The translations under genes were made by a program, and so were the position numbers. Below, piece after piece: positions 437 to 56,749 of a stretch of 64,000 bases of DNA. Source of the DNA: Chiloscyllium plagiosum (taxonomy: Eukaryota); contig NC_057718.1 of the NCBI RefSeq assembly GCF_004010195.1, forward strand, positions 59,693,622-59,757,621, given 5' to 3'. Position 1 is the first letter of the stretch. Each line of letters starts with the position of its first letter. Under the pieces are notes generated by a model. It was not told where the DNA came from and made no database searches. It worked only from the letters and a program-made list of their open reading frames with translations.

Positions 437-1020
437 GAGAGTAAATGATCTTTCTCAATTCACAATTAGTGAAAAATATATATTTTCTGATGAAAAACTT
501 TCTTCTCTTTTACTCTGTGTTGTTTCAGCAGTTCTTTCTTTTTCATGTATTTGTCTTTTATCACTGTCCCAATGGTTTGCATACAACAGAATTCCATCAC
601 TTTTATGAGTATTTAGAGATGAAATACATTATTTTTCCTGATATTACAATTCTTCAAATACACAAATAAACCAAATCCAATCACTAATGTATAATTTATG
701 GCTAAACATAAAAAGGACATGACCATCTGTGTAGTGTTTTGCTGTGGACTCGTAATGTACTCATTGCAGTGATCCACAGTGCCCAAGAGAGGGCATTAGT
801 TTGTCTTCTGACAATAATGCATAAACATTAAAGACTGAGAAGCAACTGAAATTTAAACTTGAAATTCTTTCTCATTATCAAAAGCTATTTCAGTGTTGAC
901 CTCTCTGATTATAAACCTGCAAATATCTCTAATATTATACTGATAGTTATTTTTAATAGTTCATGATTATGAGAACACATTATTTTTAATGATTATTGGG
1001 TTTTGGTTGATAGTGTTAAT

Positions 1021-1600
1021 AGAGTCATAGCATTGTACAGCACAGAAACAGACCCTTTGGTCCAAATCGTCCATGCCAACCAGATATCCAAAATTAATCC
1101 AGTTCCATTTGCCAGCATTTGACCCATATCCCTCCCGAACCTTTCTTATTCATATACACACCCAGATGCCTTTTAAATGTTGTAATTGTACCAGCCTCCA
1201 CCACTTCCTCTGGCAGCTCATTCCATACACCATTTTGCATGAAAATGTTGCCCTTAGGTCCCTTTTAAATCTTTCCCCTCTCACCTTAAACATATGCCCA
1301 CTAGTTTTGGACTTCCCCACCCTGGGGAAACTATTTTGGCAATTCACCCTATCCATGCCCCTCATGATTTTATACATCACTGTAAGGTCACAACTCAGTT
1401 TCTGATGCCCCAAGGAATATTGCCCCAGCCTATTCAGCCTCTCCCCATAGCTCAAACCCTCCTTTTCTGAACGCTTTCAAGTTTAACAAAATTTTTCCAA
1501 TAACAGGGAGTCAGAATTGCATGCAATATTCCAAAAATGGCCTAACCAATATCCTGAACAGTCACAACATGATCTCCCAACTCCTACACTCAATGCACCG
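1021..1600 (-). mobile_element. 5'-truncated CR1-type LINE, 3' end
   Basis: ORF 1150-1455 resembles the CR1 ORF2 C-terminus (SYGERLNRLG...VRGERFKRDLR). 3' UTR and CTATGACTCT tail match copies ending at 5787, 33795 and 47570. Confidence 0.9.
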
Positions 1601-2217
1601 ATCAATACAGGCAATTTGCTTTATAATTTCATTTTGAGAGAAAGATTATGGGTAACTCAAGATGGAGAATGGGAAAAACGTGTGGCTGTAAGAGTTGCTC
1701 CTTCATTGAGGCATTTTAGGTGCTAGTAATTACTGCTTATGAGCTGTTGCATTGTTTTGGAAATTGGGGAGGAAAAGATCAAAACAACAGCACGGTATAA
1801 AGGAAGAAGAGAGACAAAGGCAGTGACCACATGGTCAGTGAATCAAATGAGAAAGAGACCTAACTGCTGCCTGACACAGCAGTGAATCTGCACAGCTACT
1901 GCCTTTGCTGTTTAATTTCAAGAATCTCTGGACATCTGGACATCTCGGAAAAATTAACAAACAACAAAATTCACAGCTGACCATGGAGGAACCTGTGTGG
2001 GAGAGCAGTTATGTGCATAGTTTTTAAGTGTAACCTTGCTGTAAATCTACAGTAGTGAGTACAATGGGTTTTTTTATGATTTTATGTTTGATTGAGATCA
2101 GTTTCTTGATTAAATTTTAAAAATATAAACCATAGGTACTAAGTTAGCCTGGAGCAGTGTTTTCTGAGCAGTACGTCTATACTATTTTCTGGGTTTGTAG
2201 ATTGTTAAGGCGCAAAG

Positions 2218-2920
2218 ATGACTTTTAGTTGAGTGATGTGCTCTTCCTGTCAGATATGGGAGATGAGGCAGAGTTTCCATGTTACTGATGATAATATCTG
2301 AAGGAAGTGTGATTGTTTGCGAATCCTATCAGATCACATGGATTAGTTGGAGCAGCAGTTAGAGGCAATCAGGAACTTACAGAAGCTAGGAGGTGTGATG
2401 GATGGTAGTTATAGGAAGGCAGAAAAAACACAGTCAGGTAGATAGATGACCTCCAGGAAATGTAAGAGAGGGAGACAGGTAGTGCAGGAGTCTCCAATGG
2501 CCACCCCATCTCAAACAAGTTTGCTGTTCTGGAAAATGTAAGGGAATGTAGAATGAACAGCCAGGTTCCTGATACCGAGAGTGGCTTTAATGTAATGAGG
2601 GGTACATCAGGTTCCAAGCAATTGATTATGATAGGGGACTCTCTAGTCAAGGGCTCAGAAGGACATTTCTGCGGCCAACAGCGAGACATCAGAATGATGT
2701 GTTGCCTTCCTGGTGCCAGGATCAAGGATATCTCAGAGAGGGGGCAGAATATTCTCAAAAGGGAGCAGAACCAGCTGGAGGTCGTTGTATACTTTGGTGT
2801 AGGACCCAAGAAGATAGTGAGGAAAGAGATCAGCCTGAGATTGTTACAGTTGGGAAAAGAAGCAAGTCAAACAGTCAGGGCAGGCAAGAACAAAACAGAG
2901 AATGAGATGGGACTGGTAAA
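2218..2920 (+). pseudogene. CR1 ORF1 remnant: Cys-rich N-terminus, coiled coil, SGNH/GDSL esterase-like domain
   Basis: From ATG 2218: VMCSSCQIW...RKCDCLRILSD...LEQQLEAIR with in-frame stops. ORF 2553-2924 has IMIGDSLVKG and CCLPGARIKD, typical of CR1 ORF1 esterase. Confidence 0.8.
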
Positions 2921-2929
2921 GTAAACCGC

Positions 2930-5693
2930 ATTTATTTCAGTACTTGAGGCCTAACAGGGACGGCAGATGAACTCTGAGTATGGTTAGGAACATGGGATTG
3001 GGATATTATAGCAGTTACAGAGAGATGGCCTAGGGATGGACAGAAATGGCAGCTTAATGTTCCAGGATACAAATGCTATAGGAAGGATAGAAAGGGTGGC
3101 AAGAGAGGAGAGGAATGATGTTTTTAATAAAGGATAACATTACAGCTGTACTCAGGGAGGATATTCTTGGGAATATGTCCAGGGATATTATCTGGGTAGA
3201 ACTAAGAAATAAGAAAGAGATGATCACCATTTGTGGGATTGTACTATCATCCCCACAATAGTTAGAGGGAAATTGAGAAATAAATAGGGTGGTAATGGTA
3301 GGGGATTTTACCTTTCCAAACATAGACTGGGACTGCCACGGTGTTCAGGGTTTAGATGGAGAGGAATTTGTTAAGTGTGTACAAGAAAAAATTCCAATTC
3401 AGGATATGGATGTATCTACTGGAGACGTTGCAAAACTTAACCTACTTTTGGGAAATAAGGCAGAACAAGTGACTGAGGTGTCAGTGGGGGAACACTGTGT
3501 GGCCAGCAACTATAATTCAATTCGTTTTAAAACAGTGATGGAAAAGGATAGACCAGATCTAAAAGTTAAAGTCTGAAATGGGAGGAGGGTCAATTTTGAT
3601 GGATTTAGGCAACAACTTCCAAAACTTGATTGGAGGTGAACCTTCGCAGGTAAAGAGACAGCTAGAAAATGGGAAACCTTCAAAAATGAGATAACAAGAG
3701 TCCAGAGACAGTACGTTCCTGCTAGGGTGAAAGTCAAGGTTGGTAGGTGTAGGGAATGCTGGATGACTAGAGAAATTGAGGTTTTGGTTAAGAAAAAGAA
3801 ACATGCATATGTCAGATATAGACAGCAGAGATCAAGTGAATCCTCAGAAAAGTATAAAGAGCATAATATTGGGGAAATCAGGAGGGCAAAAAGGGGACGT
3901 GAGATAGCTTTGGCAAATTGGGTTAAGGAGAATCCAAAGGGATTTTATAAGGACAAAAGGGTAACTAGGGAGAGAATAGAGCCCCTCAAAGATCAGCAAG
4001 GCAGCCTATATAGGCCAAAGTGAGGACTGCAGATGCCGGAAACTGAAACGTCGATTTTCCTGCTCCTCCGATGCTGCCTGACCTGCTGTGCTTTTCCAGC
4101 ACCACTCTAATCAAGGCAGCCTATATGTAGAGCTGCAGGAGACTGGACAGATATTAAACAAGTATTTTTCACCAGTGTTTACTGTGGAGAAAGGCATGGA
4201 GAATATAGAATGTGGGGAAATAGATGGTGACATCTTGAAAAATATCCATATTACAGAGGAGGAAGTGCTGGGTGTCTTAAAATGCATAAAGGTGGATAAA
4301 ACCCTGGGACTTGATCAGGTGTACCCTGGAACTCTGTGGGAAGCTCCAGAAGTGATTGCTGGGACCTTTACCATATTTGTACCATAAGTAGTCACAGGTG
4401 AGATGCCGGAAGAATGGATGTTGGCTAATGTGGTGCCACTATTTAAGAAAGGTGGCAAGGAAAAGCCAGGGAACAATAGACCAGTGAGCCTGACATCAGT
4501 GGTGGGCAAGTTGTTGGAGGAAATCCTGAGGGACAGAATGTACATGTGTTTGGAAAGACAAGGACTGATTAGGGATAGTCAGCATGGCTGTGTGCATGAG
4601 AAATCATGTCTCATTAACTTGATTATTTTGAAGAAGTTAAAAAGAGGATTGATGAAGGCAGAGCAGTGGACATGATCTGTATGGACTTCAGTAAGGTTAC
4701 TCATGATAGACTGGTTAGCAAAATTAGGTCACATGGAATACATTTGGATACAGAACTGGCTCCAAGGTAGAAAACAGAGGGTGCTTTTCAGACTGGAGGC
4801 CTGTGGCCAGTGAAGTGCCACAAGGATCAATGCTGGATCCATTGCTTTTTGTCATTTATATAAATGATTTGAATGTGAACATTGGAGGTATTGTTAGTAA
4901 TTTTGCAGATTACGCCAGAATTGGAGATGTACTGGACAGTGAAGAAGGTTACCTCTGAGTATAACGGGATCTTGATGAGTTGGGACAATGGGCCAAGGAA
5001 TGGTGAATAGAATTTAATTTAGATAAATGTTTGTGGCTGCATTTTGGAAAGGCAAATCAGAAAAGGACTTATACACTTAATGGTAGGTGTTGCTGAACAA
5101 AGAGACCTTGGAGTGCAGGTTCATAGTTCCTTCAAAGTGGAGTCTCAGGTAGATAAGAGTTTGGTATGCTTTCCTTTATTGGTCAGAGTATTGAGTACAT
5201 TGAGAGGGCAGCTGTACAGGACGACAGTTAGGTCAGTATTAGAATATTGCATGCAATTCTGGTCTCCTGCCTACAGGAAGGATGTTGTTAAACTTCAAAG
5301 GGTTCAGAAAAAATTTACAAGGATGTTGCCAGGGTTGGAGGGTTTGAGCTACAGGAAGAAGCTGAATAGGCTCGGGCTGTTTTCTCTGGAGCATTGGTGG
5401 CTGAAGGATGACTTTGTAGAAGTTTATAAAGTCATGAGGGACATGGATAGGGTCTTTTCCCTAGGGTGGGGAAATCCAAAACTAGGGGGCATAGGTTTAG
5501 GCTGAGAGGAGAGAGATTTAAAAGGGACTTAAGGGGCAAACGTTTCACACAAAGGGTTGTGAGTGTATGGAGTGAGCTGCCAGAGGAAGTGGTGGAGGCT
5601 GGTAAAATTACAACATTTCAAAGACATCTGGATGGGTATATGAATAGGAAGAGTTTAGAGGGATATGGGCCAAGTGCTGGCAAATGGAATTAA
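2930..5693 (+). pseudogene. CR1 ORF2 remnant (APE endonuclease plus reverse transcriptase)
   Basis: Motifs VGDFTFPNIDW, ANVVPLFKKG..PGNNRPVSLTSVVGK, QRDLGVQV, LEYCMQFWSP and QRVVSVWSELP across shifted frames. Confidence 0.9.
4012..4111. mobile_element. 100-bp PLE-derived insertion inside CR1 ORF2
   Basis: Perfect 15-bp TSD CAAGGCAGCCTATAT (3997-4011, 4112-4126). Inverted tail followed by a sense arm that starts at the GAAACGTC of the hammerhead. Confidence 0.85.
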
Positions 5694-6065
5694 ATTAATT
5701 TTGGATGTTATTAATGCGATCGGCATGGGCGAGTTGGACCGAAGGGTCTGTTTCCGTGCTGTACATCTGTATGATTCTATGACTCTAAATAGCAAGGAAA
5801 AGTCATAGACCTAGTTTTTGTTTTTAAACATAGTTCTAATTATTTTTTTCTGTTAATTAATTAGTTGTAAAATATGTAATATAAATTATATTACATCAGC
5901 AGTTGTTCACAGTGTTGCATTATGTCTCATGATCAGTGTGTCAGTACACCTTTAAGAGGCATGTTCATGGCATCATTACTGATTGAAAACATGTGACCTG
6001 AGAATATAAAGGTCTCATATTCCATCTTAAGCTGGGATTTAGTGAAGTATGATGTGATACTAGAA

Positions 6066-7609: not shown

Positions 7610-8833
7610 TGGGCCTCAAAATTCAGCTTTGTAATTTAGAACTGATGTTTGAGAATCAGGAGTCTATCAAACTAGCATACTCCCAGCCTCTTCCACTGTG
7701 TCTATATTAATGCCGATGTTGGGGAGAAAGCTTTGGATGTTTCGTGTGTGCACCAGAAAAATTGAAAGTGGGCAGTGAATCAGCCAGTCTCTCATACTAA
7801 TTTAAGGCAGTTTTGAAATCACCGACTACTCAAATCCAAAGAATGTCATTTTCCAATCATCATGTTCAGTGTCTTCATTTTTGAATGGGTAGATGTGCAG
7901 TCTTTCGGCTGTCATGAAAAAGATGGTGGCTACTTGAAGATAAGTGATATCCCCCCCAAATCATACTTATGGCTCGTGACAGTTCTGAAAAAGGACTCAA
8001 AATATTAATTTCTGTTTCCATAGGTGCTGCCAGACCTGCTGAATTTCTGTTTATGTTTCATGACTCCCTCCACCACATGACCTTGCAAGATCAACACACC
8101 TGCAATAAGAACCATGCTGCCCACAGGAAACTGTGAAGCAGAACAATGGCATTCTCAAACAATGGATCAAACCAGATGGAATAGATGTAAAAAAACTATC
8201 TGAAGCATCTTGCCAAATTGTTGGTGGTCTGCTGCACAACCTCATTATGATGACCCAAACTTTGTCATTGAACTTACAGAGTTGAACGTCAGAGGAAGAG
8301 GAGGCAGTCAGAAAGGATCAGAGAACCGTTCACTCGGGACAAACTGCCTGTGAGTATCGACACACGCTTCAGTTTCCTTGGGCCACTATTCCCAGCACCA
8401 CAATTGCTCCACAATTCTGCACCTTTCAAGCCTTTTTTTCTATACCACATCTGAATAATATGAATAATTACATTTATACTTCTTAACCAAAACCTTGAAT
8501 TAAAAGTCATCAATGAAAAACCATTTTATGGTAAGTTAACACAATAAGACATACAATAATAAATACAGAAATGAACTATTTCTCCTTTTCCATCCTCTTT
8601 TTGTCTGCTTCGGAGGTATCTTTGCTTGTTTCAGCATGATACATGCTATACATATAAGCAGCTGTTGACACTATAATGCACACTGAAGTGCACACAGTAC
8701 CAGAATTTGAGCATAAGAAAGCAAGCATCAGATCAACTTACAATGCTTTTTCCTCTGCATCAGTTCTCATCTTTCTTTTTGGAATTGCTGAGGTTGACCT
8801 AGTGACAATTCTTGAATGTCAGAAAATGTGAAT
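7610..8833. mobile_element. Old PIF/Harbinger-like transposon remnant (probably continues 11646-~12030)
   Basis: 8090-8255 resembles the HARBI1-type DDE C-terminus (NHAAHR..VKQNNGILKQ...IVGGLLHNLIM, compare HA.TR..VEQTIGILK...CC.LHN). Heavily decayed. Confidence 0.5.
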
Positions 8834-8845
8834 TTAGAATGAGAG

Positions 8846-9144
8846 TTAAAAATCACACAACACCAGGTTATAGTCCAACAGGTTTAATTGGAAGCACACT
8901 AGCTTTCAGAGCGACACTCCTTCATCAGGTGATTGTGGAGGGCTCGATTGTAACACAGAATTTATAGCAAAAATTTGCAGTGTGATGTAACTGAAATTAT
9001 ACATTGAAGAATTGATTGTCTGTTAAGCCTTTCATCTGTTAGAATACAGTGATAGTTTCACTTCTTTCACGTGTAAATCACAAAACCCTTTTTTTAAAGT
9101 TGCATTCTCGGGTTAGCTGTTAACAATGGTAATAGCTAGACAAT
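8846..9144 (-). mobile_element. PLE pseudo-LTR, left inverted arm (runs into the gap)
   Basis: Reverse complement of 11292-11591 with few mismatches. Contains a hammerhead motif. Confidence 0.85.
8897..8931 (-). ncRNA. Minimal hammerhead ribozyme motif
   Basis: CAC-CTGATGA-a-GGAG-tgtcg-CTCT-GAAA-GC-TA-GTG: intact core, stem I CAC/GTG, palindromic AGCT in place of stem III. Confidence 0.8.
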
Positions 9145-9356
9145 NNNNNNNNNNNNNNNNNNNNNNNNNNNNNNNNNNNNNNNNNNNNNNNNNNNNNNNN
9201 NNNNNNNNNNNNNNNNNNNNNNNNNNNNNNNNNNNNNNNNNNNNNNNNNNNNNNNNNNNNNNNNNNNNNNNNNNNNNNNNNNNNNNNNNNNNNNNNNNNN
9301 NNNNNNNNNNNNNNNNNNNNNNNNNNNNNNNNNNNNNNNNNNNNNNNNNNNNNNNN
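9145..9356. other. Assembly gap (N run)
   Basis: Run of N. Confidence 1.
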
Positions 9357-11221
9357 TCAGTTTTAAACAAATACCTCACTTCTCATACATTCGAAAAATG
9401 GCAAGCACTTGTTACAGTTGGTCTCTCAAGGCCAGAAAAACTTGCACTCACATATGCTACAACAACAGCAGGAAGTGCCAAATAAAGTCAATGGGCTGGG
9501 CAGCAATTGTGGAAAGGCAACCAGAGTTAAAGCCTTGTGTCCAATATGACTCTGATATAGTCACAACTTTATTTATTAGCCACATCTGACTGACCATTTT
9601 TGAGTTCTTCACCTTGACGAAATGCATAGTTTCTGAAAGCCACGTCGTAGTCCTTGAAAGACTATCCATTGCTTATTTACAGTCATGCTTTAAGTGTGTT
9701 TTTCCAATTCACATCAATAAATTGTACTTCTTGACTTCATAATTTCCCTTAATCCCCTAAATTTTAAAACCCTCAGTTCATATTTAAATACCTTATTTTC
9801 AAACATTCAAATGCAATTCTATCATATTGTGGTTACTTATCCTCAACATTTTTTACAGCAAGTTTATTCATTAGTCATTTTACATTATTCAACAATAAAT
9901 TTTAAATAACCTATGTTCTGGAAACTTTCTTTGGAATACCAACCTATCTCATTCCTGTATCGTATCGACACCAAAGATACTAAGATGAAATTTGTCTGTG
10001 CATGCAGCCTTTGTTTTTTCCAAACTAGGTTAGCTGAACTGAAATGAGAAGAATAAACATATGAAGCTTGGTGTTAAGCTAATGAAAAGAAAGATCACAG
10101 GATTCAATGTGTCTGAAAGAATGTTTGTGTTTAATTAAGTTGTGTAACTCAGCCATATTGGTCTCACTGTCATAGCACACCTAAAAATACTGGAATCTTA
10201 TTCAAAATTAAACGGAATAAATTAAGTGTAATGTGGACTGTTTATCAATCAACAGGGTGCATTGGCCATATAATTGTGCTGTGTAAAAATCATACACTTG
10301 ATGAGTAAACGAAGATTGCAACAGAGTGAGCAGATAGTGGATAGCAGATTTGTGACGTTTGCCACTGGTCAAACTGATCATTTGTTGGTGACTGGACAGT
10401 ATCAGAGTTTGAATGCATAGTTTCTTTGTATGGAAAAACAGTATAAGAAAGCTTGCCTCAGAGCATATTTGGCTAGTTCAGAGGCTGGAGAGTAGGATGC
10501 AGCAGACTGATGACACATTTCAGTTTGAACCTCAGGGAACAAGTTCACGGAAACCTGTTTCCTTGTGATTGTAAGCATTAATTAGTGATGACATTTTGCA
10601 GTATTTTGTAGAATCATTGATTTAATAAAGAATAATGCAAATATTCCAATGTTAGAACTGCCTTGGGTTATGGGTGAGCAAAGGGAAGAACCAGGGAAAG
10701 TAGGAATAAATGCCTGTGGTGCCAATGCTTCTCGGTGGTAGCAGGCATATCCTTAAATAAAATATTTCAGCTCTTTCTGTCTCAGTCAATGCAGCAAGAG
10801 TCAGCACGGATTTGGTGATTGAAATTAATTATGAGTTAACTTGGATTCTTCCTGGAAAAATGGTGTGTTTATCACTTAAGAGGTGCTGTTTGTGATCAAC
10901 AAGTAATTTCCTCCGAGTTTACAATCATGAAATCTCCAGTGTTCCCTGTAAAGCTCCACTTAATAAAAGGTTTATGTAAGTCGTTGAGCCATAAATGTTA
11001 CATGAGTAATGATGTATGCAATAATTGCATGCAAGGGGAATGTTGGGAATTTACTAAGTTTAGGCATTTGCTATGTTCTAGGATATGTTATATATATTCA
11101 GCGTTGTGTTTACGATTGTGTGTCATGTTGGGTAGACTTCAATTTGTGATATCACAACTGGTCCACTACAATTGCCTCATCTCACTAGTGATGCCTCATC
11201 CACACAGGATAGTTATCTCGC

Positions 11222-11633
11222 TTTTTAGATTAGAATCAATCTAAACATCAGGTCATAGACAGAGAACACAGGGGGCTAACACCTTCAACATATTGTCTAG
11301 CTATCACCATTGTTAACAGCTAACCAGAGAATGCAACTTTAAAAAACAGGGTTTTGTGATTTACACATGAAAGAAGTGAAACTATCATTGTATTCTTACA
11401 GATGAAAGGCTTAACAGACAATCAATTCTTCAATGTATAATTTCAGTTACATCACACTGCAAATTTTTGCTATAAATTCTGTGTTACGATCGAGCCCTCC
11501 ACAATCACCTGATGAAGGAGTGTCGCTCCAAAAGCTAGTGTGCTTCCAATTAAACCTGTTGGACTATAACCTGGTGTTGTGTGATTTTTAACTTTGTACA
11601 CCCCAGTCCAACACCGGCATCTCCGAATCATGA
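11222..11633 (+). mobile_element. PLE pseudo-LTR, right arm with 3' tail
   Basis: Same family as 44645-44908 and 55970-56582. Ends CGGCATCTCCGAATCATGA, as at 44891-44909. Followed by TTAGAATGAGAG (11634-11645), identical to 8834-8845. Confidence 0.85.
11506..11540 (+). ncRNA. Minimal hammerhead motif with catalytic G12 mutated
   Basis: CAC-CTGATGA-a-GGAG-tgtcg-CTCC-aAAA-GC-TA-GTG. Confidence 0.7.
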
Positions 11634-14244
11634 TTAGAATGAGAGGGTTGTGATAAAGGAAGAAGGGAGGATTGGAAAACCAGGAAGCACATGGTCACAC
11701 AACATACAACTTACACATCATGCCAGAAAGCTGATTTAGGGTGAAGGGGAGTTTGAGAAGATGCATAAAGCAAAATAATATTGTAATCTTAAATGTTTTA
11801 AGCTGGGCTGGATGCAAACGTCTATGCTATAGTTATCCCTGCTTCTTAGTCCCTTCTTGCAAAAATCATAAATTATTGAGTGGAATTGCCTCTTTGAACA
11901 CAGATGTGCCAAGTGTGACCCGCCTCATTTGCCCATGTGAGGATGTTGGGGGCCAGGTTCAGTGATGGGACTTCTGGATTTGGGCTTCCAACGCCATTTT
12001 TACTGCGCAAAAAGTCAGGCCTGAGTATTCCTGTTCTGTGGATCCTCAGCCCAGAGTTTTTAAAAATGTTTAACTGATATCACAGGTCTTTCCGAATTAC
12101 TATAACAATATTCTCTCAGTTCTGCATTGGAGGTCCAGCTTAGATTATGCATTCAAGACTTTGGAGTGGATGTGAATCATAGTCATCTGACTCAAATATG
12201 CAGTTTTATCCCAGGTCATGTTCTCAAACATCTCGTAATTAGCTGGAATTAGAGCAGAGATTGTTCAGGTAGTCTTTCCCTCTCCCTACCTACTTGTCTA
12301 ATACTTCACCAGGATATCTTAATTAGAGTCAAGAGCTTTTCTGATCTGAATTAGTTTCATGTAGATAGTTACTGGCAATGTTAAAATGATGCTGGTCAGA
12401 AAATGTAAAATGTGTGGACTCCAAAGCACAAATAACTTGGATGATAAACATTTTCTAATCAAATTATTTGTGTATTTGTTGACATTCTAGACTTTATTAT
12501 AAAACCCAACTTTTAAAAAATCCATTTATGATGGATTGACATATTCTTCATCTTTAGAACTTAAACGAATCATCATGATAATTTTATTTTCAACTTTAAG
12601 TGAGAATTTATCCACTCGCATTTTAAATCCTTATGGCTCAGAATTGATTAAATGTAAGTCATAATAAGAATATGATAGCAATTAGCAATTAAACCTCTGA
12701 ACAATCACAAAATATATTTGTCAGCTGTCACAATAACAACACTTGTATCACATAACAGAAACAACCATAAGCTTACAATTTCTGATACTGTACAGGAGTG
12801 AATGTTATAACTTGGCAAATGCATGGAATCATGAGACATTTTCATACCTGTTTCTTTGCTATTACATATTTGAGCATCTATTGAACACAGTGTAACTTTG
12901 TAATCAAATATGGCATTTATTTTTGTTGTTATTATGTTCCTGCACTTATTCCATGAAGAGAAATAATTGACAACATTTCAGATGGATTAGCCATAATTTT
13001 CTAAACTTCCTACCAAGAAAATGGGGATTTGGAGACATTTGGCTATGCCCTAATCATGCGAGTTGCATTGCACTGTAAAGCTGATGGTGCCAGTTTTCCC
13101 CTGAGATACGTTCTTGAAATGCATTCCCTGTAACTATTTAGCCAGTGAGATTGCCTATTGCAAAGTTAATCTAATTAGGCCATCAATTGAGGTGGGTTTT
13201 CTAAGTGATGACCTTTGGAAAGGAATTGAGGACTCCACCTCCATATCTACAAAGTGTGGTAACTATGAGATGTGATATGCAGGCTGAGAAATTGGATAGT
13301 ACAAGGACCCAATATGTACGTAAGCGTACCACATTTATTAAGAAATTGCTACACAAATGAAGGCACAGACAAATATAAAAGAAAAATTAAGTTATTCAAA
13401 TGATAGTTCTGCCCTGGCGCTATGAGATAGGATATATTGTGAAGCAGTTCAACTAAGTCAGAACTCCAATTCCCTATTCACCAAGAATCCTGCATTCCTT
13501 ACTTTGCCTTTTTCCAAATATCACTATCGCATTGTCCTTTTTCTCTATACACATTAGCCTTGCCCTCATTTGAAGACAACGTTAAATATAACACCAAATG
13601 TTAACCAATGTTTATCAAATAGCTTCTCATTCTTCACAGTTAAAAATAATATCATTCACTGTCATGTATTCCCTTTGTTCCTGCCTTGATCTGACCTGGT
13701 TCCCATGTGGTACTGCGCTGGCATTGTGATGTGAGCTTTGCCTTCATCAGAGTATTTATACCTGATGCAGCAATGCTTATTTTAGCTCCTGTAACATAAG
13801 AATAAAATGTGGAATTGAAAGATTCAACAGACCATTATAACAGTTTTTGATATTTGGGTATACATTTGAGTCCCAGATACTTAAGTGTCTAGGCTAATAT
13901 GCTTCCATTTGATTAAAAAACTCCATGTTTTTTCACCAACATGTCATGTTTGAGATAGTACTAGTAAAGTGGAATCTAAGCCCTTTATACCCTCAAACCA
14001 CATGCTATGATACAGTGATGATATCATGAACTTTTCTCCAAGAACTATATCATGCAAACTGTGAGACAGAGCACAACAGTTATAATTGAGGAGATACAAT
14101 GCTGCTGAGCTGCCATTGAAACTAGGACATGGGGAATGATTTCAGCAACACTATGTCAAGACCTCCTGTATACAGTATCATTTGAACACAGTCTGTAGCA
14201 TTTTGGAACAGTTACCTGGCAGCAGACAAGGGCTGGTAGGGAAA

Positions 14245-14395
14245 GTAACAAAACAGAACTTGCGAGAAGAACTCAGCAGGTCTGGCAGCATCGATGGACA
14301 GAAATCACAATTGACGTTTCAGGTCTAGTGAACCTTTTTCAGAACTATTTTTGATTCTAATTTCCAGCATCAGCAGTTTTCTGGTTTTTTTTTCT
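14245..14395. mobile_element. Older short PLE-derived insertion with degenerate hammerhead (14311-14345, minus strand)
   Basis: Minus strand CTGAAAA-AGGT-tcactag-ACCT-GAAA-CG-TC. Sense tail TTCCAGCATCAGCAGT. Degenerate TSD CTGGTAGGGAAAGTA / CTGTTGGGGAAGGTA. Confidence 0.6.
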
Positions 14396-14754
14396 GTTGG
14401 GGAAGGTATCCATGCTGCCATACTGAGGAAGGATGGCAGCTTTCTTCCTCATGGAGTTATTAATTATCAGTCTCTTGGGGTGATCATAGAACTTTTAGTG
14501 CTCTGTTCGTCAAAAATGCACTGAGGAGATAGAGCCTTCAAAAGCCCATTTCAACAATGGTTTCTAGAGTCAAGATTGCAGCCATCTGAGCTGTCACATT
14601 CATCACGAGACTCTTCGTCATGGTGAGCATCATTGTGGTACTATGGTGATGAGCACATGGAAGAGATTGACATTATGTCTTGCACTAAACTTCAAGCAAA
14701 AACAGAGATGGACTTGTGCATGTTACATGATATCAAGCACAAGCTCTATTTATG

Positions 14755-14908
14755 AAGTATTTAGAGGTGTACTTGCAATGCCAAGGCACACAAGGCTATG
14801 GGCCAAGTGTTGGAAAATGGGCTTAGAATAGTTAGGTGGTTGTTTTTGACTGGTGTAGACTCAATGGGCCTTTTCTTCTGAGCTTTAAACCCCTATGACA
14901 CTGTGACT
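14755..14908 (+). mobile_element. CR1 3'-end fragment
   Basis: GGCTATGGGCCAAGTGTTGGAAAATGGG...CTATGACACTGTGACT resembles the CR1 3' UTRs in this window. Confidence 0.65.
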
Positions 14909-15061
14909 ATCTGGCAGGCTACCAATGCTCTAAGCCTTGTTTTCCTTTGGCTTTCTTTGGTAACCCATCAAAGTCAGCATTGGAACCTTCTGACTGATAT
15001 GTGGTATCAATATCTGATTAACATCGCTGTGGTTCTGTTCGCCGAGCTGGAAGTTTTTGTT

Positions 15062-15101
15062 GCAAACGTTTCGTCCCCTGGCTAGGCGACATCATCAGTG
15101 C
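15062..15101 (-). ncRNA. Minimal hammerhead ribozyme motif
   Basis: GCA-CTGATGA-t-GTCgCCT-agcc-AGGgGAC-GAAA-CG-TT-TGC. Confidence 0.8.
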
Positions 15102-15365
15102 TTGGGAGCCTCCTGCGAAGCGCTTCTTTGATGTTTCCGCCGGTGTTTATAGTGGTCTGTCCCTGCCGCTTCCGGTTGTCAGTTTCAGCTGTCCGCTGTA
15201 GTGGTTGGTATATTGGGTCCAGGTCGATGTGTTTTTATAGTCTGTTTTATCTCATGTTCCTTGTAACAGAGGGAGTAAGGTGGGATAAAAAAAAATTGTG
15301 CTCTGTTTCACAGTCCTCCCTCTAACACTTACTGATACATCCTGCATTTCTCAGTATTACTATAA

Positions 15366-15560
15366 CATTGATAACAAGCAACATGAATTCGACTGGGACA
15401 ACACTACTATCATAGGGCAAGCCAGACAGAGAACAGCCAGGGAATTCCTAGAGGCATGGCATTCATCCACAAACTCCATCGACAAACACATCGACCTGGA
15501 CCCAATATACCAACCACTACAGCGGACAGCTGAAACTGACAACCGGAAGCGGCAAGGACA
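15366..15560 (+). pseudogene. Penelope/Poseidon-type GIY-YIG endonuclease C-terminal fragment
   Basis: HEFDWDNTTIIGQARQRTAREFLEAWHSSTNSIDKHIDLDPIYQPL fits the H.FDW....I......R...EAW pattern. Confidence 0.8.
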
Positions 15561-15616
15561 GACCACTATAAACACCGACGGAAACATCAAAGAAGCGCTT
15601 CGCAGGAGGCTCCCAA

Positions 15617-15656
15617 GCACTGATGATGTCACCTAGCCAGGGGACGAAACGTTTGC
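15617..15656 (+). ncRNA. Minimal hammerhead ribozyme motif
   Basis: GCA-CTGATGA-t-GTCaCCT-agcc-AGGgGAC-GAAA-CG-TT-TGC. Confidence 0.8.
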
Positions 15657-16389
15657 AACAAAAACTTCCAGCTCGGCGAACAGAACCACAGCAACGAGCA
15701 CCCGAGCTACAAATCTTCACACAAACTTTGATCTGATTAACATCATTTGTGGCCACCTATCTCCCTGCCCTAGTTCCTGTACATTTGTGCCTTGTGAGTC
15801 CTGCCTCAAATGGATCATCTGTTTGCCTTACAGAGCATGGGAAATGAAGGTGAGTCATAAGAAGGAGGGATAGGTGTAAGTAAACCTTGATATGATGCCT
15901 AGCATTGATAGTAACCACAGCCTCTATTATGCCCCATTTCCCTTACTAAATAAGCACAATCTCCTTAATGGCGAATAGGCAATGCTGACAGGCTAGCTTT
16001 CCACCTGTGGTTGCCTCTTCACTCCTTCTTCACCACTTTCTCCCCAGAGACAAAGATGTGCTTGTGCTAGTCTTGTAAGATGAGCGGATTACATGGTCGT
16101 CATAGTTGAGTAGAAGCATGTGTGTGCATGTGTCTGTGTGTGAGATACCAGATATGGATGCAAAATTTGTAAGTGTATTTAATGTGAAAGGGTGGCATAA
16201 ATATGTTTGAGTGAAGTTTATTGTACTGTTTGCAACAGAGTACAAATGCTGGGTCAGGGAGAGTTTAGGGTGTTTCAGTCAGCTAAATTGTGACTAGAAA
16301 CTAATTGAACAGAATTCTTACCTAATATAGTTAAATATCAATTAAGATTAACACTGAAATATTGTATAGGATAAAATTTGTTCTGAATT

Positions 16390-18700
16390 CTCATATAGAA
16401 GGGGCCACAGTGGACCATGTATTAGCTAATGAGCCTGGGCAGGTAACTGACTTTTCAGTGGAAGAGCATTTTGGAAACAGTGATCACAACTCCTTAAGTT
16501 TTAATATAACTATGAATAAAGGTAAAGTCAGGATCTTGTGGCAAGGTACTAAATTGGGGGAAGGCAATTTACAACAGCATCGGGCAGGAGCTAGGGAGAA
16601 TTAATTGGGAGGAACTGTTATCAGGCAAGTCCACATTTGACATGTGGGAATTGTTTAAAGGCCTGTTGATGAGAGTTCAGGTGCAGCATGTTCCAGTAAG
16701 GATGAAGGGCAAGAATGGGAAGTTAAGGGACCCTTGGATAATGAGAGAGGTTGTGAACTTAGTCAAAAGGAGGAAAGAAGCAAATGTAAGGTTCAGGAAG
16801 CTAAAATTGGACAGGATCTGTGCGGGATATAAATAAAGCAGGAAAGAACTTAGGCAGAGAATTCAGAGAGCAAGAAGGGGGCATGAAATGACCTTGGCAA
16901 GTGGGAGTGAAGGCAATCCTAAGTAATCCCAAAGCATTCTATACTACATTAAAAATAAAAAGGGTAACTAGAGAGAGGGTAGAAACACTCAAGGATAAAG
17001 GAGGGAACTTGCACTTGGAGGCAGAGGGTGTGGGTGAGATCCTAAATGAAAACTTTTTGTTGGTATTCACCCAGCAGAAGGATATGGAGGATAATGAGAT
17101 TTGTGGGGACCATGCTAATATGCTAAGGCATTTTGAGATCAAGAAAGAAGTGGTGTTGGGTCTCTTGAAGAGCGTTAAGGTGGATAAATCCTCAGGGCCC
17201 AATGGTATCAACCCCAGGTTAATGGGAGAGGGAAGAGAGGAAATTACTGGGGCCTTGACCAAGATCTTTGTATCCTTGCTAGCCAATGGAGAGGTCCTGG
17301 AGGACTGGCGAATAGCTCGTGTTGTTCAAGAAGGAAAATAGGGAAAATCCAGGAACCTATAGACCAGTAAGTCTCATATTGGTGGTTGGGAAGCTCTTAG
17401 AGAGAATTCTAAGAGCAAGGATTCATGCGCATTTGGAAATGTATGAATTAATTAGGGACAGTCAGCATGGTTTGATGCAGGACAAGTCATGTCTTATTAA
17501 CTTGATTGAATTTTTTGAGGAGGTGACAAGGGTGATCGATGAAGATAGAGCAGTGGTCGTTGTCTACATGGATTTTAGTAAGGCCTTCGACAAGATTCCT
17601 CATAGTAGGTTCATCCAGAAGGTTAATGCACATGGGATCCACAGTGACTTGGCCGTGTGGATTCAGAATTGGCTTGCCCATAGAAGGCAGAGGGTAATGG
17701 AAGGGTGTTTCGCTGGCCTTGGGTCAGTGACTAATGGTGTTCCCCAGGGATCCATTCTGGGAACTCTGCTGTTTGTGATATGTATTAATGACTTGGATGA
17801 AAATGTAGCTGGGTGGGTTAGTAGGTTTGCAGATGGTACAAAGGTTGGTGGAGTTGATGATAATGAAGAAGGTTGTCAAAGGCTACTTTGGGATATAGAT
17901 CAGTTGCAGATATTGGCAGAGAAATGGCAAATAGAGTTTAATCTGGGTAAGTGTGAGGTGCTGCACTTTTGATCTCCCAATTTAAAGGAAAAGCATACAG
18001 TTAATGTCAGACCCTCAACAGCATTGATGTACAGAGTGATCTTGAGGGTAAAGTCCTTAGCTTCCTGAAAGTGGTCATGTAAGTAGATAGGGTGGTAAAG
18101 AAGACAAATAATATGCTTACTTTATTGTTTGGGGAATTGTATATAAGAGTCAGGATGTCATATTGCAACTGTATAAGATGTCAGTTGGCTCAAACTTAGA
18201 GTATTGCATTCAATTCTGGCTGCTGCCTTACAGGAAAGATGTGGAGGCTTTGGAGAGGGTGCCAAAATGGTTTACAAGGATGCTGCATGGATTAGAAGGT
18301 ATGAGCAAAAGGAGTGGCTAGAAAATATCAGGTTGTTTTCTCTGGAGCGGTGGAGACTTGATAGAAGTCTATACAAGTTTATGAGATGCATAGATTGGGT
18401 TGACAATCAGAATCTTTTTCCCAGAGCTGACATGTCCAAAACTAGGGGACATGCATTTAAGGTGAGAGGGTAACGTTCAAAGGAGATGTGTGAGAAACAG
18501 GTTTTTTTGCACAGCGAGTGGTAGGAGTCTGGAACGCACTGCTGAGGTGGTAGTGGAGGTAGATAGAATAGGGGTAAATAGATAAACACATGAATGTTCA
18601 AGGAATAGAGGAATATGGACCAAGGGTGGTTTCAAGTTCAGCACAGCATCATGGCCAAGGGGCCCATTCCTGTCATGTACAATTCATTGTTCTATTCTCA
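16390..18700 (+). mobile_element. 5'-truncated CR1-type LINE (second subfamily), ORF2 remnant
   Basis: EHFGNSDHN (APE C-terminus), YRPVSL, YMDFSKAFDKIPH, GVPQGSILG, FADGTK, KCEVLHF. Frameshifted. Confidence 0.92.
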
Positions 18701-33961: not shown

Positions 33962-34465
33962 AGGGAGCCTCCAGGGTGGAGAAATAATTGGGTATGGCGG
34001 GGTGGGGGGGGGGAGGAGATGGGGTGGGGGAGGTGGGGTGGCNNNNNNNNNNNNNNNNNNNNNNNNNNNNNNNNNNNNNNNNNNNNNNNNNNNNNNNNNN
34101 NNNNNNNNNNNNNNNNNNNNNNNNNNNNNNNNNNNNNNNNNNNNNNNNNNNNNNNNNNNNNNNNNNNNNNNNNNNNNNNNNNNNNNNNNNNNNNNNNNNN
34201 NNNNNNNNNNNNNNNNNNNNNNNNNNNNNNNNNNNNNNNNNNNNNNNNNNNNNNNNNNNNNNNNNNNNNNNNNNNNNNNNNNNNNNNNNNNNNNNNNNNN
34301 NNNNNNNNNNNNNNNNNNNNNNNNNNNNNNNNNNNNNNNNNNNNNNNNNNNNNNNNNNNNNNNTCCACCCTGGAGGCTCCCTCCATCTTTTCCTGATGAA
34401 ACGTTGATTTTCCTGCTCCTTGGATGCCACCTGACCTGCCGTGCTTTTCCGGCACCACACTAATT
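33962..34465. mobile_element. PLE insertion with inverted arms spanning an assembly gap
   Basis: Perfect 19-bp inverted repeat 33962-33980 / 34364-34382. 34390-34460 is the short-PLE arm with hammerhead stem II deleted (CTGATGAAACGTT). Confidence 0.65.
34043..34363. other. Assembly gap (N run)
   Basis: Run of N. Confidence 1.
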
Positions 34466-35212: not shown

Positions 35213-35306
35213 AATTCAACCACCTGATGAAGAAACAGCACTTTAAAGGCTAGTGCTTCCAAATAAACCTGTTGGTCCAAAACCCGATGTTATGTGATTT
35301 TTTTAA
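35213..35306 (+). mobile_element. 94-bp PLE 3' fragment with decayed hammerhead
   Basis: Matches 11500-11592. 11-bp TSD CAGTGAGTTAA (35202-35212, 35307-35317). Confidence 0.75.
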
Positions 35307-43150: not shown

Positions 43151-43876
43151 AATGGGGTCCATGAGAGTAGGTATCTCGAGGTGGGCAGTATTTGTTGTCC
43201 TTCCCTAGTTTCCTTTGAACTGATTGGTTCTCCAAGATGGTTATGAAGGCAGTTAAGAGTCAATCACATTTCTGAGTATCTGGAACCAGATTTCCATCCC
43301 TAAATGACATTATAATTTTTATGAGTTGTCAATAATTACAATTGGAAAAGCTTTTAAATTCCCCCAAATTTTCATCTAATTTAAATTTCACTATCTGCCA
43401 TGTAGAGGGGCGATCTCATGCCCTGAAGGTTATTTGAGGTTTAGGGAGAGGGACAGAGTTAGGATTACTCGTCCAGTGACATTATCACTATGTCTTGGGC
43501 TGCTCTATTGGCGATATTATTGGAGGTCTGGAGGCACATGTATATCAGCTGGGTAAGAACAGCGGATTTCCTTCCCTTGACAAATATGGGAATCAATTTT
43601 TGTTCGGTATAGGTGAGAATTTGTTGTTGAGGCCTCAATCAGATCAGCCAGGATCTTTTTGAATAACGGATACTTTGAGGAGCCAAGTGGTTGACTCCAG
43701 CTCCTAATTTTCATGTTTGTACATTTGTATTTAGGTCAAATAAGAGGTTTCTCTCAGCTTAATCTTTAACTATGTCAAACCTATCATGGAGTTTGTACAT
43801 TCTTATACCTTATTTTACGTTCCTATGTATGATATTTTGAACATATTTATGCTCAATCTAAGTCACCATTCTTCTG

Positions 43877-44908
43877 TTAAGTCCCTCATCTGTTAGAATG
43901 ACCATGATAGTTTCACTTCTTTCATATTTAAATCACAAAACTTGTTTTTAAAAGTTACATTCTCAGGTTAACTGTAACAATTGGTGTCAGCCCAGAGAAG
44001 ATGTTGAAGGTGTTAGCCCCCTGTGTTCTGCTGTCTGTGCCATAATGTTCAGGCTGATTCTAATGTTAAAATGAGTTAACAGAGTCTTACATGGATTCAT
44101 GCAGTTTTTGAGCAAAGTACAATGTAATTCTGCAAGTACAAATTCACCTCACAAACTTATATGTGTTTGTGGGTTTGTGTGTGTCTGGGGTGGGGTGGGG
44201 GGTTGTGAGTGTCAGTGAGAGCGATTGTATATGTGTGTGTGAGTGTAAAGGGGTCTACATCTGTGAGAGGGTGCATGTGTGAGTGTGGGAGTGTGTGTGT
44301 GTCTGTAGGAGTGTGTGTGATTGTCTGTGTGCGTGTCCATGTAAAGGAGTGCCTGTGTGTGTGTGTGTGTAGGAGCGTCTGTATGTGTGTATAGTGCAAT
44401 AGTAGTCACCTGTAGTGTGACATGAACCAAGGACCCGGTTGAAGCCCTCCCTATGGGTACCGAGGACCAAGGTCACTCCTAGACACACACACACACACAC
44501 ACACACACGTACCATCTCACAGACGTAGACCCCTTTACATTCACATACACATACACTCTCTCTCACAGACACTCATAACCCCCCACGCCAAACACACACA
44601 CACACTCCTGCAGACACACACACTCCCACATTCCCCCATGATTAGGTTAGAATCAGTCTAAACATTTTGGCACAGACAACAGAACACAGGAGGCCAACAC
44701 CTTCAACATCTTCTCTGGGCTAACACTAATTGTTACAGTTAACCTGGGAATGTAACTTTTATAAAAACATTTTGTGATTTACATATGAAAGAAGTGAAAC
44801 TATCATGGTCATTCGAAAAGATGAGAGACTTAACAAACAATCAAGGTATTTTTCAATGTATAACTTCAGTTACATCACAATGTAAACTACCGGCATCTCC
44901 AAATCATG
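43877..44908. mobile_element. PLE (Neptune-like, CA-rich 3' region) with long inverted arms
   Basis: 12-bp TSD ACCATTCTTCTG (43865-43876, 44909-44920). 43877-44065 is the reverse complement of 44645-44833. Minus strand at 44405-44463 encodes GTHREGFNRVLG, a GIY-YIG C-terminal TH..GLN.D.G-like end. Confidence 0.85.
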
Positions 44909-45099
44909 ACCATTCTTCTGATGTGTGAATTCTTTGTCAAATTCACTCAGCGATTTTTGAGCTGCTTCCTTCAATTTCAATGTACCTTCCAGTTTTATAA
45001 ATTTTGATCACAGCATTGAGTCTGTAATCCAGGTCATTTATGTAATTCAGAGACACCAGTAACCTCAATGCCAAACACTGAACATTTTACCCATACTTT

Positions 45100-46451: not shown

Positions 46452-46570
46452 TGGCAAAAGTGAGGACTGCAGATGCTGGAAACCAGTGTTTAAATGAAAG
46501 TGGTGCTGGAAAAGCACAACAGATCAGGCAGCATCCAAGGAGCAGGAAAATTGACGTTTTGGGCAAAATC
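46452..46570 (-). mobile_element. Short-PLE arm with tail, truncated inside the hammerhead
   Basis: Same family as 4012-4111 and 37813-37963. Confidence 0.8.
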
Positions 46571-46579
46571 ATCCAGGAT

Positions 46580-47570
46580 GGATCTGGGTCCTCTACTTTT
46601 TGACATTTACATAAATGATTTGGATGCGAACATAAGAGGTACAGTTAGTAAGTTTGCAGATGACACCAAAATTGGAGGTGTAGTGGACAGAGTAGAGGGT
46701 TACCTCAGATTACAACAGGATCTTGACCAGATGGGCCAATGGGCTGAGAAGTGGCAGATGGAGTTTAATTCAGATAAATGCGAGGTGCTGCATTTTGGGA
46801 AAGCAAACCTTATCAGGACTTATACTCTTATTGGTAAGGTGTTAGGGAGTGTTGCTAAACCAAGAGACCTTGGAGTACAGGTTCATAGCTCCTTGAATGT
46901 GAAGTCGCAGGTACATTGGAGAGTGAAGAAGGCGTTTGGTATGCTTTCCTTCATTGGTCAGAGTATTGAGTATAGGAGTTGGGAGGCCGTGTTGCGGCTG
47001 TACAGAACATTGGTTAGACCGTTGTTGGAACATTGCGTGCAATTCTGGTCTCCTTCCTATCGGAAAGATGTTGTGAAACTTGAAAGGGTTCAGAAAAGAT
47101 TTACAAGGATGTTGCCAGGGTTGGAGGATTTGAGCTACAGGGAGAGGTTGAACAGGCTGGGGCTATTTTCCCTGGAGTGTCGGAGGCTGAGGGATGACCT
47201 TATAGAGGTTTTCAAAATTGAGGGGCATGAATAGGGTAAATAGGCAAAGTTTTTTCCCTGGGGTGGAGGGGGGTCCAGAACTAGAAGGCATAGGTTTAGG
47301 GTGAGAGGGGAAAGGTATAGGAGAGACCTAAGGGGCAACGTTTTCACACAGAGGGTGGTACGTGTATGGAATGAGCTGCCAGAGGATGTGGTGGAAGCTG
47401 GTACAATTGCAACATTTAAGAGGTATTTGGATGGGTATATGAATAGGAAGGGTTTGGAGGGATATAGGCCGGGTGCTGGCAGGTGGGACTAGATTGGGTT
47501 GGGATATCTGGTCGGCATTGACAGTTTGGACCGAAGGGTCTGTTTCCATGCTGTACATCTCTATGACTCT
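46580..47570 (+). mobile_element. Young 5'-truncated CR1 (open RT C-terminal frame to 47234)
   Basis: LGPLLFDIYINDLD, KFADDTK, KCEVLHFG, RPLLEHCVQFWSP, QRVVRVWNELP. CTATGACTCT tail. Confidence 0.95.
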
Positions 47571-48154
47571 AAAACTGTGCAACTCAGACCTCTTGAGCAT
47601 CTCAAATTATCTTTGTTCCGCTATTAATTGTGGGCATTCAGATGCTAAACCCTTCAACTCTGGATTTTCCTGACAAAATCTCCCAGGCTCTCAAACTTTC
47701 TTTCCCTACTTTTAAGATACATCTAAAAATTGACCAAATTTGGCCAAATTTATTGTCATCTCCCTAATATTATCATATATGACTTAGTGTCTAATTTTGT
47801 TTGACAAAATTTCTGGGCAATTTTACTATAGTGAAGGTGCTATATACATTCAAGGTTGTTGTTGAATGGTTTGCATGGAAGACAGAAGCTAGGCATCTGT
47901 TTCTACTTTCCATCTGTTGGTTCCATATTTTTGGCAGATTGAATGCATTGGGTGTCTACTAATGTACAATATTTTTAGTATTTGGGATACATCAATGTGC
48001 TTTTTCTAAAGAATCGTGAGGGATAATTAACATAATAAGTTGGCATACAGATATGCTATCGAAGGAATTGTAAATTCCAGAGTTTAAGCAGCCTAGGATC
48101 ACAACTCATTTTTTTCATGCAGGTAGATAACCTATAACAAAACCCATTCTCTAC

Positions 48155-55969: not shown

Positions 55970-56582
55970 GTACACTCCCACACTCATACGCACCCTCTTA
56001 CAGACTTGTACCTCTTTACACTCACACTCACACACATACACATACTCTCTCACAGACACTCATAATCCCCCCCACACACACACATGCACATACACACATA
56101 TAAGTTTGTGGAGTGAAGTTGTACTTGCAGAATTACAGTTTGTTTTGCTCAAAAATTGCATAAACTGCAAAAAGCCATGTAAGATTCTGTAAATCCGTTT
56201 TTTGGATTAGAATCAGTTTGAACATTGTGGCACAGACAGTCTCGCACGGGGCACCTCACACCTTCAATGCATTATCTGGGCTGACATGACACCAATTGTT
56301 AAAGTTCACTTGAGAATGTAACTTTTAAAAAGTTCTGCGATTTACATATGAAAGAACTGAAACCAACATGGTCATTCTAAAAGATGAGGGATTTGACAAA
56401 CAATCCAGGTCTTTTTCAATATATAATTTCAGTTACATCACACTGTAAACATTTGCTATAACTTTTGTGTCTTATGATCTTATACTCCACAACCACCTGA
56501 TGAAGGAGCAGTGCTCCGAATGCTAGTGCTTCCAAATAAATCTGTTGGACTGTAACCTGGTGCTTTGTGACTTTTAACTTTG
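55970..56582 (+). mobile_element. PLE 3' region, single arm, CA-rich
   Basis: Homologous to 11222-11592 and 43877-44300. Confidence 0.85.
56494..56528 (+). ncRNA. Minimal hammerhead motif with A15.1 mutated
   Basis: CAC-CTGATGA-a-GGAG-cagtg-CTCC-GAAt-GC-TA-GTG. Confidence 0.65.
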
Positions 56583-56749
56583 TTTCCTTTTTGGTATGTA
56601 TATTGTCAATGACAATTCAAATGAAATGATGTTTCTTCTCCCTGGAATGTCAATCCCATATCACCTGCTGTCATTTATCTGTTTCTGATGTTGGGGTGCA
56701 CTGAGCCCCTGGGACTGATGGTTAATCTGTGGTCTGTACAGATAGTAGG

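Follow-up and report, generated by a model that had tools for sequence, protein, structure and literature searches.

A probable capture of about 2 kb of host DNA between inverted Penelope-like element arms in the shark Chiloscyllium plagiosum

How does a block of about 2 kb with no resemblance to a retroelement come to lie between two inverted copies of a Penelope-like element (PLE) that share a single target-site duplication (TSD)? The question is raised by positions 8834-11645 of a 64,000-nt stretch of Chiloscyllium plagiosum contig NC_057718.1 (hereafter the window, with position 1 as its first letter), which an earlier note described as one PLE integration that had taken in ~1.9 kb of host DNA in a Pack-like manner. 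We find inverted, 5'-truncated PLE ends within one 12-bp TSD, and consider it probable, at roughly seven chances in ten, that the ~2 kb between them is host DNA copied from another locus in a single integration. A true capture in the wider sense, with a two-step form counted in, is a somewhat safer claim. Contigs from a related species and two versions of the cargo in the window's own species support the integration that the note proposed, and leave its Pack-like part unsupported.

Anatomy of the insertion unit

The unit is bounded by a perfect 12-bp repeat, TTAGAATGAGAG, whose copies lie at 8834-8845 and 11634-11645, just outside both arms, as had been claimed. When 40-nt stretches of the window were paired at random with 80-nt ones, up to 3000 times, 2 pairs shared an exact 12-nt repeat. 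Inside the repeat, the left arm (8846-9144, minus strand, delimited by arm comparison) represents the 3' end of the element without the tail and is cut by an assembly gap of 212 N (9145-9356), so that the left junction is absent from the sequence. The right arm (11212-11593, plus strand), delimited by comparison with other window copies and with contigs, is 5'-truncated and continues into a one-sided tail (11594-11633, plus strand) of 40 nt, or 42 nt if counted from 11592. The arms are 97.0% identical (8844-9144, minus, against 11292-11593), with 9 differences in 302 columns, 4 of them CpG-type, and the pairing of the left arm with the right one reaches 2 nt into the TSD (8844-8845). Both the near-identity of the inverted arms and the confinement of a ~42-nt tail to the right one had been noticed before, and both hold. 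The earlier limits of the right arm are upheld as far as the tail end; its start moves from 11222 to about 11212, and the host-like part ends at 11209. Two letters, TA (11210-11211), form the right junction between the last position fitted by contigs of a relative (11209, see below) and the PLE start, and no poly(A) is present there.

An inverted 5'-truncated copy, a one-sided tail and a short TSD are hallmarks of endonuclease-bearing (EN+) PLEs, and all three are found at the unit. No reading frame of the element, whether for reverse transcriptase (RT) or GIY-YIG, occurs inside it, so the GIY-YIG label of the note has no counterpart in what we observe. In public contigs, 3' ends of the family cluster at 11592-11595 or at 11624-11631, with 509-783 contigs per listed place in all four runs compared. 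Tail-to-tail fold-backs are also seen, in which the short 3' end (11595) is joined to the tail end (11631-11633) on opposite strands (three runs, 2-11 contigs per row); such fold-backs at two start sites reverse the usual arrangement. The tandem repeats in 8000-12500 number two, both short and both outside the unit. On the minus strand of 8730-8845, a pyrimidine-rich stretch that ends in AG follows the target site by ~35 nt, and a segment bounded by AG and GT near it could, by eye, be a small exon, with no gene identified around it.

A motif scan places a minimal type-I hammerhead motif in each arm, at 8897-8931 (minus strand) and 11506-11540 (plus strand). The features of this class comprise the core, an extra base between 9 and 10.1, a G10.1-C11.1 pair and a palindromic 15.2-16.2 (PMC4209133). 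Compared with these by hand, the left motif keeps an intact core with C11.1 changed to U. The right motif has core G12 changed to A, through a CpG-type change at 11530, and by its sequence is likely inactive. A hammerhead in the terminal repeat, as in EN+ PLEs, is present in both arms in these altered forms (left U11.1, right G12A). One CpG at the edge of the core (11529-11530 and its left-arm counterpart) has decayed on opposite strands, destroying G12 in the right arm only. The description of the arms as hammerhead-bearing is borne out at the level of the minimal motif; the right copy lacks core G12, and Rfam returns no match at gathering score in the window and none up to E 5 in 8800-11700. 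The hammerhead regions and the tail fold no better than shuffled sequences (z -0.3 and -0.5 for the hammerheads), and since weak folding is expected of minimal hammerheads, folding provides no test.

The cargo and its counterparts in public contigs

Public contigs from 4 of 23 runs and three organisms were compared with positions 9357-14900, that is, with the interior, the right arm and the right flank. X1 comes from the window's species (species A), X5 and X7 from relative B and X8 from relative C; raw-read runs were left out, as were those whose share did not exceed 0.20. The contig results concern the entries listed: 40 of 397 rows for letters and 12 of 41 for indels, together with 15 of 558 joints, 24 of 4060 loose ends and 32 of 355,809 pieces.

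In relative B, flank contigs stop fitting the window at 11634, the first base of the right TSD copy, in both runs. The X5 contig (record 14, 2625 nt) fits 11634-14028 and has 214 letters left over before this base, and the X7 contig (record 21) fits from the same base with 207 letters left over. The TSD sequence stands at the start of the flank in these contigs, without the tail. The interior contigs leave the window at another point: X5 record 10 (2000 nt) fits 9658-11209 and then runs on for 458 other letters, X7 record 20 departs at 11209 and continues for 145 other letters, and no second piece of either on the flank is among the pieces listed. Because the B contigs part at 11634 and at 11209, the interior and the landing site are separate loci in B. 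Were the interior adjacent to the flank there, X5 records 10 and 14 would share hundreds of bases, and no overlap is seen; the 458-nt piece would also be among the longest listed, and it is not there. Judging from where the fits stop, relative B likely has an empty site. The earlier note had allowed for orthologs that keep the interior at this position, and in relative B the interior is not next to the right flank.

Over 9658-11209 the X5 contig is collinear with the window, the largest listed indel being 12 nt, so that no intron has been removed from that part. Species A and relative B diverge by 3.7% in the interior and 3.1% in the flank. At their left ends, the donor contigs of B and C extend 26 and 31 nt beyond that of A, further left (equivalents of 9180 and 9175 against 9206), a hint, as if a repeat began at the left end of the cargo. 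Joints from 11593-11631 to 14270-14273 were set aside as short-sided matches among repeat copies.

Species A carries two versions of the interior. Record 6 of X1 spans the tail, the TSD and the flank (11608-14028) with 0 differences, showing that this junction is real. Three flank records of X1 differ from the window at 0 of 3245 nt, and three interior records at 8 of 1705 nt (Fisher p 0.0002). Letters other than those of the window occur in X1 at 12 listed interior places; 10 of these match the letter of B and/or C, which is no unbiased share since the listed rows favour places common to several runs. At 6 of the 12 places the two letters have similar depth (for example, 6.3 of 13.5 at 11109, 11122 and 11133). 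The simplest reading of these sequences would take the two versions as donor and copy, for which 8 interior differences and 0 in the flank are as expected. Donor and copy are estimated to diverge by about 0.7-1.1%, and with A-B divergence at 3.1-3.7% the copy would be younger than the A-B split. Depth suggests about 2-3 cargo loci in all, and a second arm-cargo-arm copy is not seen.

The visible cargo (9357-11209) behaves as low-copy host DNA in contigs, Pfam and similarity searches. Summed depth per bin over the four public runs is 5-182 in the interior and 4e5-2.8e6 on the arm (14-122 and 6e5-2.4e6 in X1), and this difference marks the interior as low-copy host DNA. The cargo shows no similarity at E below 1 to four PLE pieces of the window and nothing beyond E 4.9 to four fetched PLE-like proteins. 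None of 15 interior frames reaches the Pfam cut-off (one, at E 0.026, lies below it); short exons or untranslated regions may be present. The note's picture of an interior without a PLE reading frame, made of ordinary genomic DNA, agrees with these results, and the depth figures are at odds with the cargo being an internal part of the PLE consensus. Neither blastn nor nhmmer finds a second cargo copy or a donor in the window, which extends 8.8 kb leftward and 52 kb rightward of the unit. Elsewhere in the window, the frame at 15289-15633 and 150 other frames of at least 62 aa (from 168 outside stretches of long interspersed nuclear elements, LINEs) give no Pfam hit above the cut-off, so no host gene is identified. 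By eye the cargo ends seemed similar to upstream PLE sequence, but this was rejected when 169-261 of 300 shuffles scored as well. GC skew flips inside the cargo, from -0.22 (9357-10000) to +0.18 (10001-11221), with flanks at about 0, and a short, moderately repeated piece lies within 10282-10466.

Part of the cargo probably lies in the gap. The 151 letters by which X1 record 1 extends past 9357 and 61 nt of arm add up to the 212 N, and 61 nt is not far from the 80 nt of right arm beyond the equivalent point. The gap would then hold ~60-80 nt more arm, the left junction and ~150 nt more cargo, giving a cargo of ~2.0 kb with this part counted.

A possible course of events and its rivals

From the observed anatomy, the separate loci in B and the two cargo versions in A, we infer both the timing and the chemistry in their entirety. 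The PLE endonuclease would nick both strands, 12 bp apart, and both 3' ends would prime reverse transcription, one at the outer start site, which yields the tail, and the other ~40 nt further in. Both copies would stop after 300-420 nt with their growing ends facing inward. One growing end would then switch to a host template outside the window, most likely DNA, and copy ~2 kb, after which the two ends would be joined, at the right junction with hardly any homology or none. The insertion would date to after the split from relative B. A template switch is proposed at this step because two inward-growing truncated copies need joining and the cargo sits at that joint. In vitro, the PLE protein of the anole cuts both strands of the target and extends them, and the two neighbouring sites at which it begins reverse transcription define the tail (PMC11167929); the two clustered 3' ends of the window family in public contigs form the same two-end pattern. 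As the host template, DNA is our tentative first choice, by analogy with the templated genomic DNA found in L1 insertions (PMC11702581), and an unspliced RNA, including a transcript that reads into a pseudo-long terminal repeat (pLTR) at the donor, would take up the smaller remainder of the probability given to a single capture.

Another conceivable course, which we regard as doubtful, is that fresh PLE cDNA docked by homology on an older, distant PLE copy, copied its inner part together with 2 kb of unique flank, and was then sealed. It is suggested by the left ends of the B and C donor contigs and by non-CpG arm differences that are confined to the inner 106 nt; errors where the contig ends at the gap also account for these differences. 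If it were true, shark genomes would acquire dispersed, intron-blind duplications of kilobase size through their many resident PLE copies, which would serve as points of entry.

Several points weigh against capture in a single integration. The empty site in B is deduced from fit ends at the right side and not from letters, and for relative C (X8) neither boundary is covered by a listed contig, the flank record beginning at 12114 and the last interior record reaching 11108. No listed contig spans the unit or the gap. The donor's place is not located, there being none within the window, and the two X1 versions could be alleles of one locus. Non-CpG arm differences number 5 in the inner 106 nt and 0 in the outer 196 nt (p 0.005, post hoc), and all differences 6 and 3 (p 0.07); this inner clustering fits contig-end errors by the gap, a chimeric join, outer gene conversion or a true copy switch. 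The longest contigs are deeper in the interior than in the flank in X1 (10.7 against 3.9) and X5 (14.9 against 12.1), but the interior of C is also deeper than its flank (7.6-16.2 against 5.7-8.4), and we give this contrast little weight since contig depth is no copy number. As to the template, the present data decide for neither DNA nor RNA.

The same observations bear on the rival explanations. In an assembly chimera, an ordinary fold-back would occupy this site, and the interior would come from elsewhere, from a locus where a separate PLE copy adjoins 11209; the assembler would have crossed between the two loci inside the repeat or at the gap. The 212-N gap at the left junction, the lack of a listed spanning contig and the clustering of arm differences in the inner 106 nt suit such an error, as does the reach of the X1 contigs, which enter the tail by at most 26 nt and of which none listed crosses the cargo-arm junction. 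We nonetheless rate it improbable: X1 holds two interior versions at similar depth, each deeper than the flank, its differences fall in the interior (8/1705) and not in the flank (0/3245), the gap size fits 151 nt of cargo plus ~61 nt of arm, and a like architecture exists without a gap at 15012-15744. Improbable to a similar degree is a history in two steps, with a fold-back insertion whose hairpin-prone centre broke later and was repaired by copying in 2 kb without the element's RT. Arms truncated at similar depth with the cargo exactly at their meeting point would be explained in this way, and the nearby copy at 43865-44920 has adjacent arms and no cargo. On the other side, outer-arm divergence (0 non-CpG and 3 CpG-type changes in 196 nt) and donor-copy divergence of ~0.7-1.1% fit one date, and a single unbroken X1 contig covers the tail-flank junction with no second form listed, although both would tolerate a short delay between the steps.

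An interior that is itself an internal PLE part, or a multi-copy non-autonomous family spread by the PLE, is very improbable. While the X1 interior-to-flank depth ratio of ~2.7 leaves room for a third copy, the gulf in summed X1 depth between interior and arm and the lack of similarity to the window's PLE pieces and to PLE-like proteins, at the values given above, argue against it. We assign the lowest probability of all to an interior that was always resident, either flanked by two independent insertions or set in place by a local inversion, with the 12-bp repeat arising by chance. The contig comparison covers the right flank, so that the inversion form is met by indirect evidence; even so, the B contigs do not join 11209 to 11634, X5 records 10 and 14 lack the overlap expected, a 12-nt repeat arises in 2 of 3000 pairs even with loose placement, and neither form predicts two versions in species A.

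If capture in a single integration is right, the locus represents a dated vertebrate PLE case with outgroup support, in which ~2 kb of unspliced host DNA was duplicated from a donor at least 9 kb away, possibly on another chromosome. Its value lies in its being dated, in the backing from outgroups and in a donor that does not lie close by. Duplicates of this kind lack poly(A) and keep their introns, and are therefore missed by retrocopy counts. With the family being very abundant, the junctions of such units would constitute a natural record of the last PLE step, the joining of two inward-growing copies. The single locus alone is a non-coding fossil with no known effect.

Known systems and other copies in the window

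In Pack-MULE-type elements, which are DNA transposons, inverted ends move cargo as a unit. The shark unit resembles them in holding host DNA between inverted termini with a duplication, but its arms would have been made during integration, and no second move is seen. The term Pack-like is thus not retained, there being no sign of arms and cargo moving again and no protein family in the cargo, with a rotifer capture already published.

In the rotifer Adineta vaga, an intron-containing nonribosomal peptide synthetase gene lies between Penelope pLTRs; an 8-bp duplication accompanies it, and the allelic site is empty (Arkhipova, Yushenova, Rodriguez 2013, PMC3846280). A few captures of non-coding DNA, between solo pLTRs and likewise with duplications, are mentioned in the same paper, and the A. 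vaga capture has been reviewed as PLE transduction (PMC6431247). Like it, the shark unit holds non-PLE DNA, unspliced, between terminal repeats within one short TSD. The rotifer gene is flanked by two direct pLTRs (plus one inverted) and was read as a trans-mobilised, pLTR-bounded transcript (PMC3846280), whereas the shark cargo is non-coding and lies between inverted 5'-truncated arms in a vertebrate host. Direct pLTRs around the cargo are not found here, the visible arms being inverted; a direct repeat may be hidden in the gap or at the donor. PLE capture of host DNA is therefore already published, from a rotifer, and the shark unit departs from it in its vertebrate host and in having the cargo between inverted truncated arms. 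Among titles and the starts of abstracts, a scope outside which most subscription papers and supplements lie, we recognised no PLE capture in a shark or other vertebrate.

A canonical EN+ PLE unit consists of an inverted 5'-truncated copy and a one-sided tail of 30-40 bp (Craig et al. 2021, PMC8557442; Frangieh et al. 2024, PMC11167929). The shark unit shares with it the inverted arms, the single tail, a hammerhead in the repeat, a TSD and two clustered 3' ends. The canonical inverted copy is directly adjacent, whereas in the shark unit ~2 kb of host DNA occupies the joint. Twin-priming and templated insertions of L1 are similar in that both target ends prime, duplications measure 12-18 bp, the inner ends are joined and genomic DNA is occasionally copied (PMC11702581). 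They involve poly(A) priming, pieces from different parts of one RNA and templated DNA from near the site (PMC11702581); the arms of the shark unit, in contrast, are both copies of one 3' end, and the window contains no donor. Two further candidates for comparison were rejected: in PMC9977147, considered as a case of PLE-mediated duplications, the duplications go with a LINE, and bioRxiv 10.64898/2026.07.22.740005 concerns tandem retrozymes instead.

A second PLE family provides a similar unit without a gap at 15012-15744, with a 14-bp duplication and a one-sided tail. Its arms are 98.6% alike over 209 nt and enclose ~111 nt of non-PLE DNA (15235-15345), for which the window offers no clear donor, the best candidate being an inverted 18/19 match at 14058-14076 (E 0.009 by blastn, 3.6 by nhmmer). 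Protein matches of this family are to shark RT-bearing proteins, at 78-84%, and the best protein matches of a PLE fragment neighbouring the unit (8 of 650 candidates) come from Chiloscyllium, Hemiscyllium and Rhincodon.

The family of the main unit recurs at 43865-44920, where inverted arms without cargo lie in a perfect 12-bp duplication. These arms are 91% alike, with 17 differences in 191 columns, none CpG-type, and may derive from different source copies; the right one has no hammerhead region, its sequence passing directly to the final 21 nt of the tail. At 44370-44480, a related copy encodes a short, frame-broken peptide that may resemble Neptune-type C-termini. Older single-arm copies of the same family lie at 55972-56583 and 35217-35302. 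The window also contains a second assembly gap of 321 N (34043-34363), and CR1/L2-like LINE fragments at about 1000-5800, 16900-18500 and 46500-47600.

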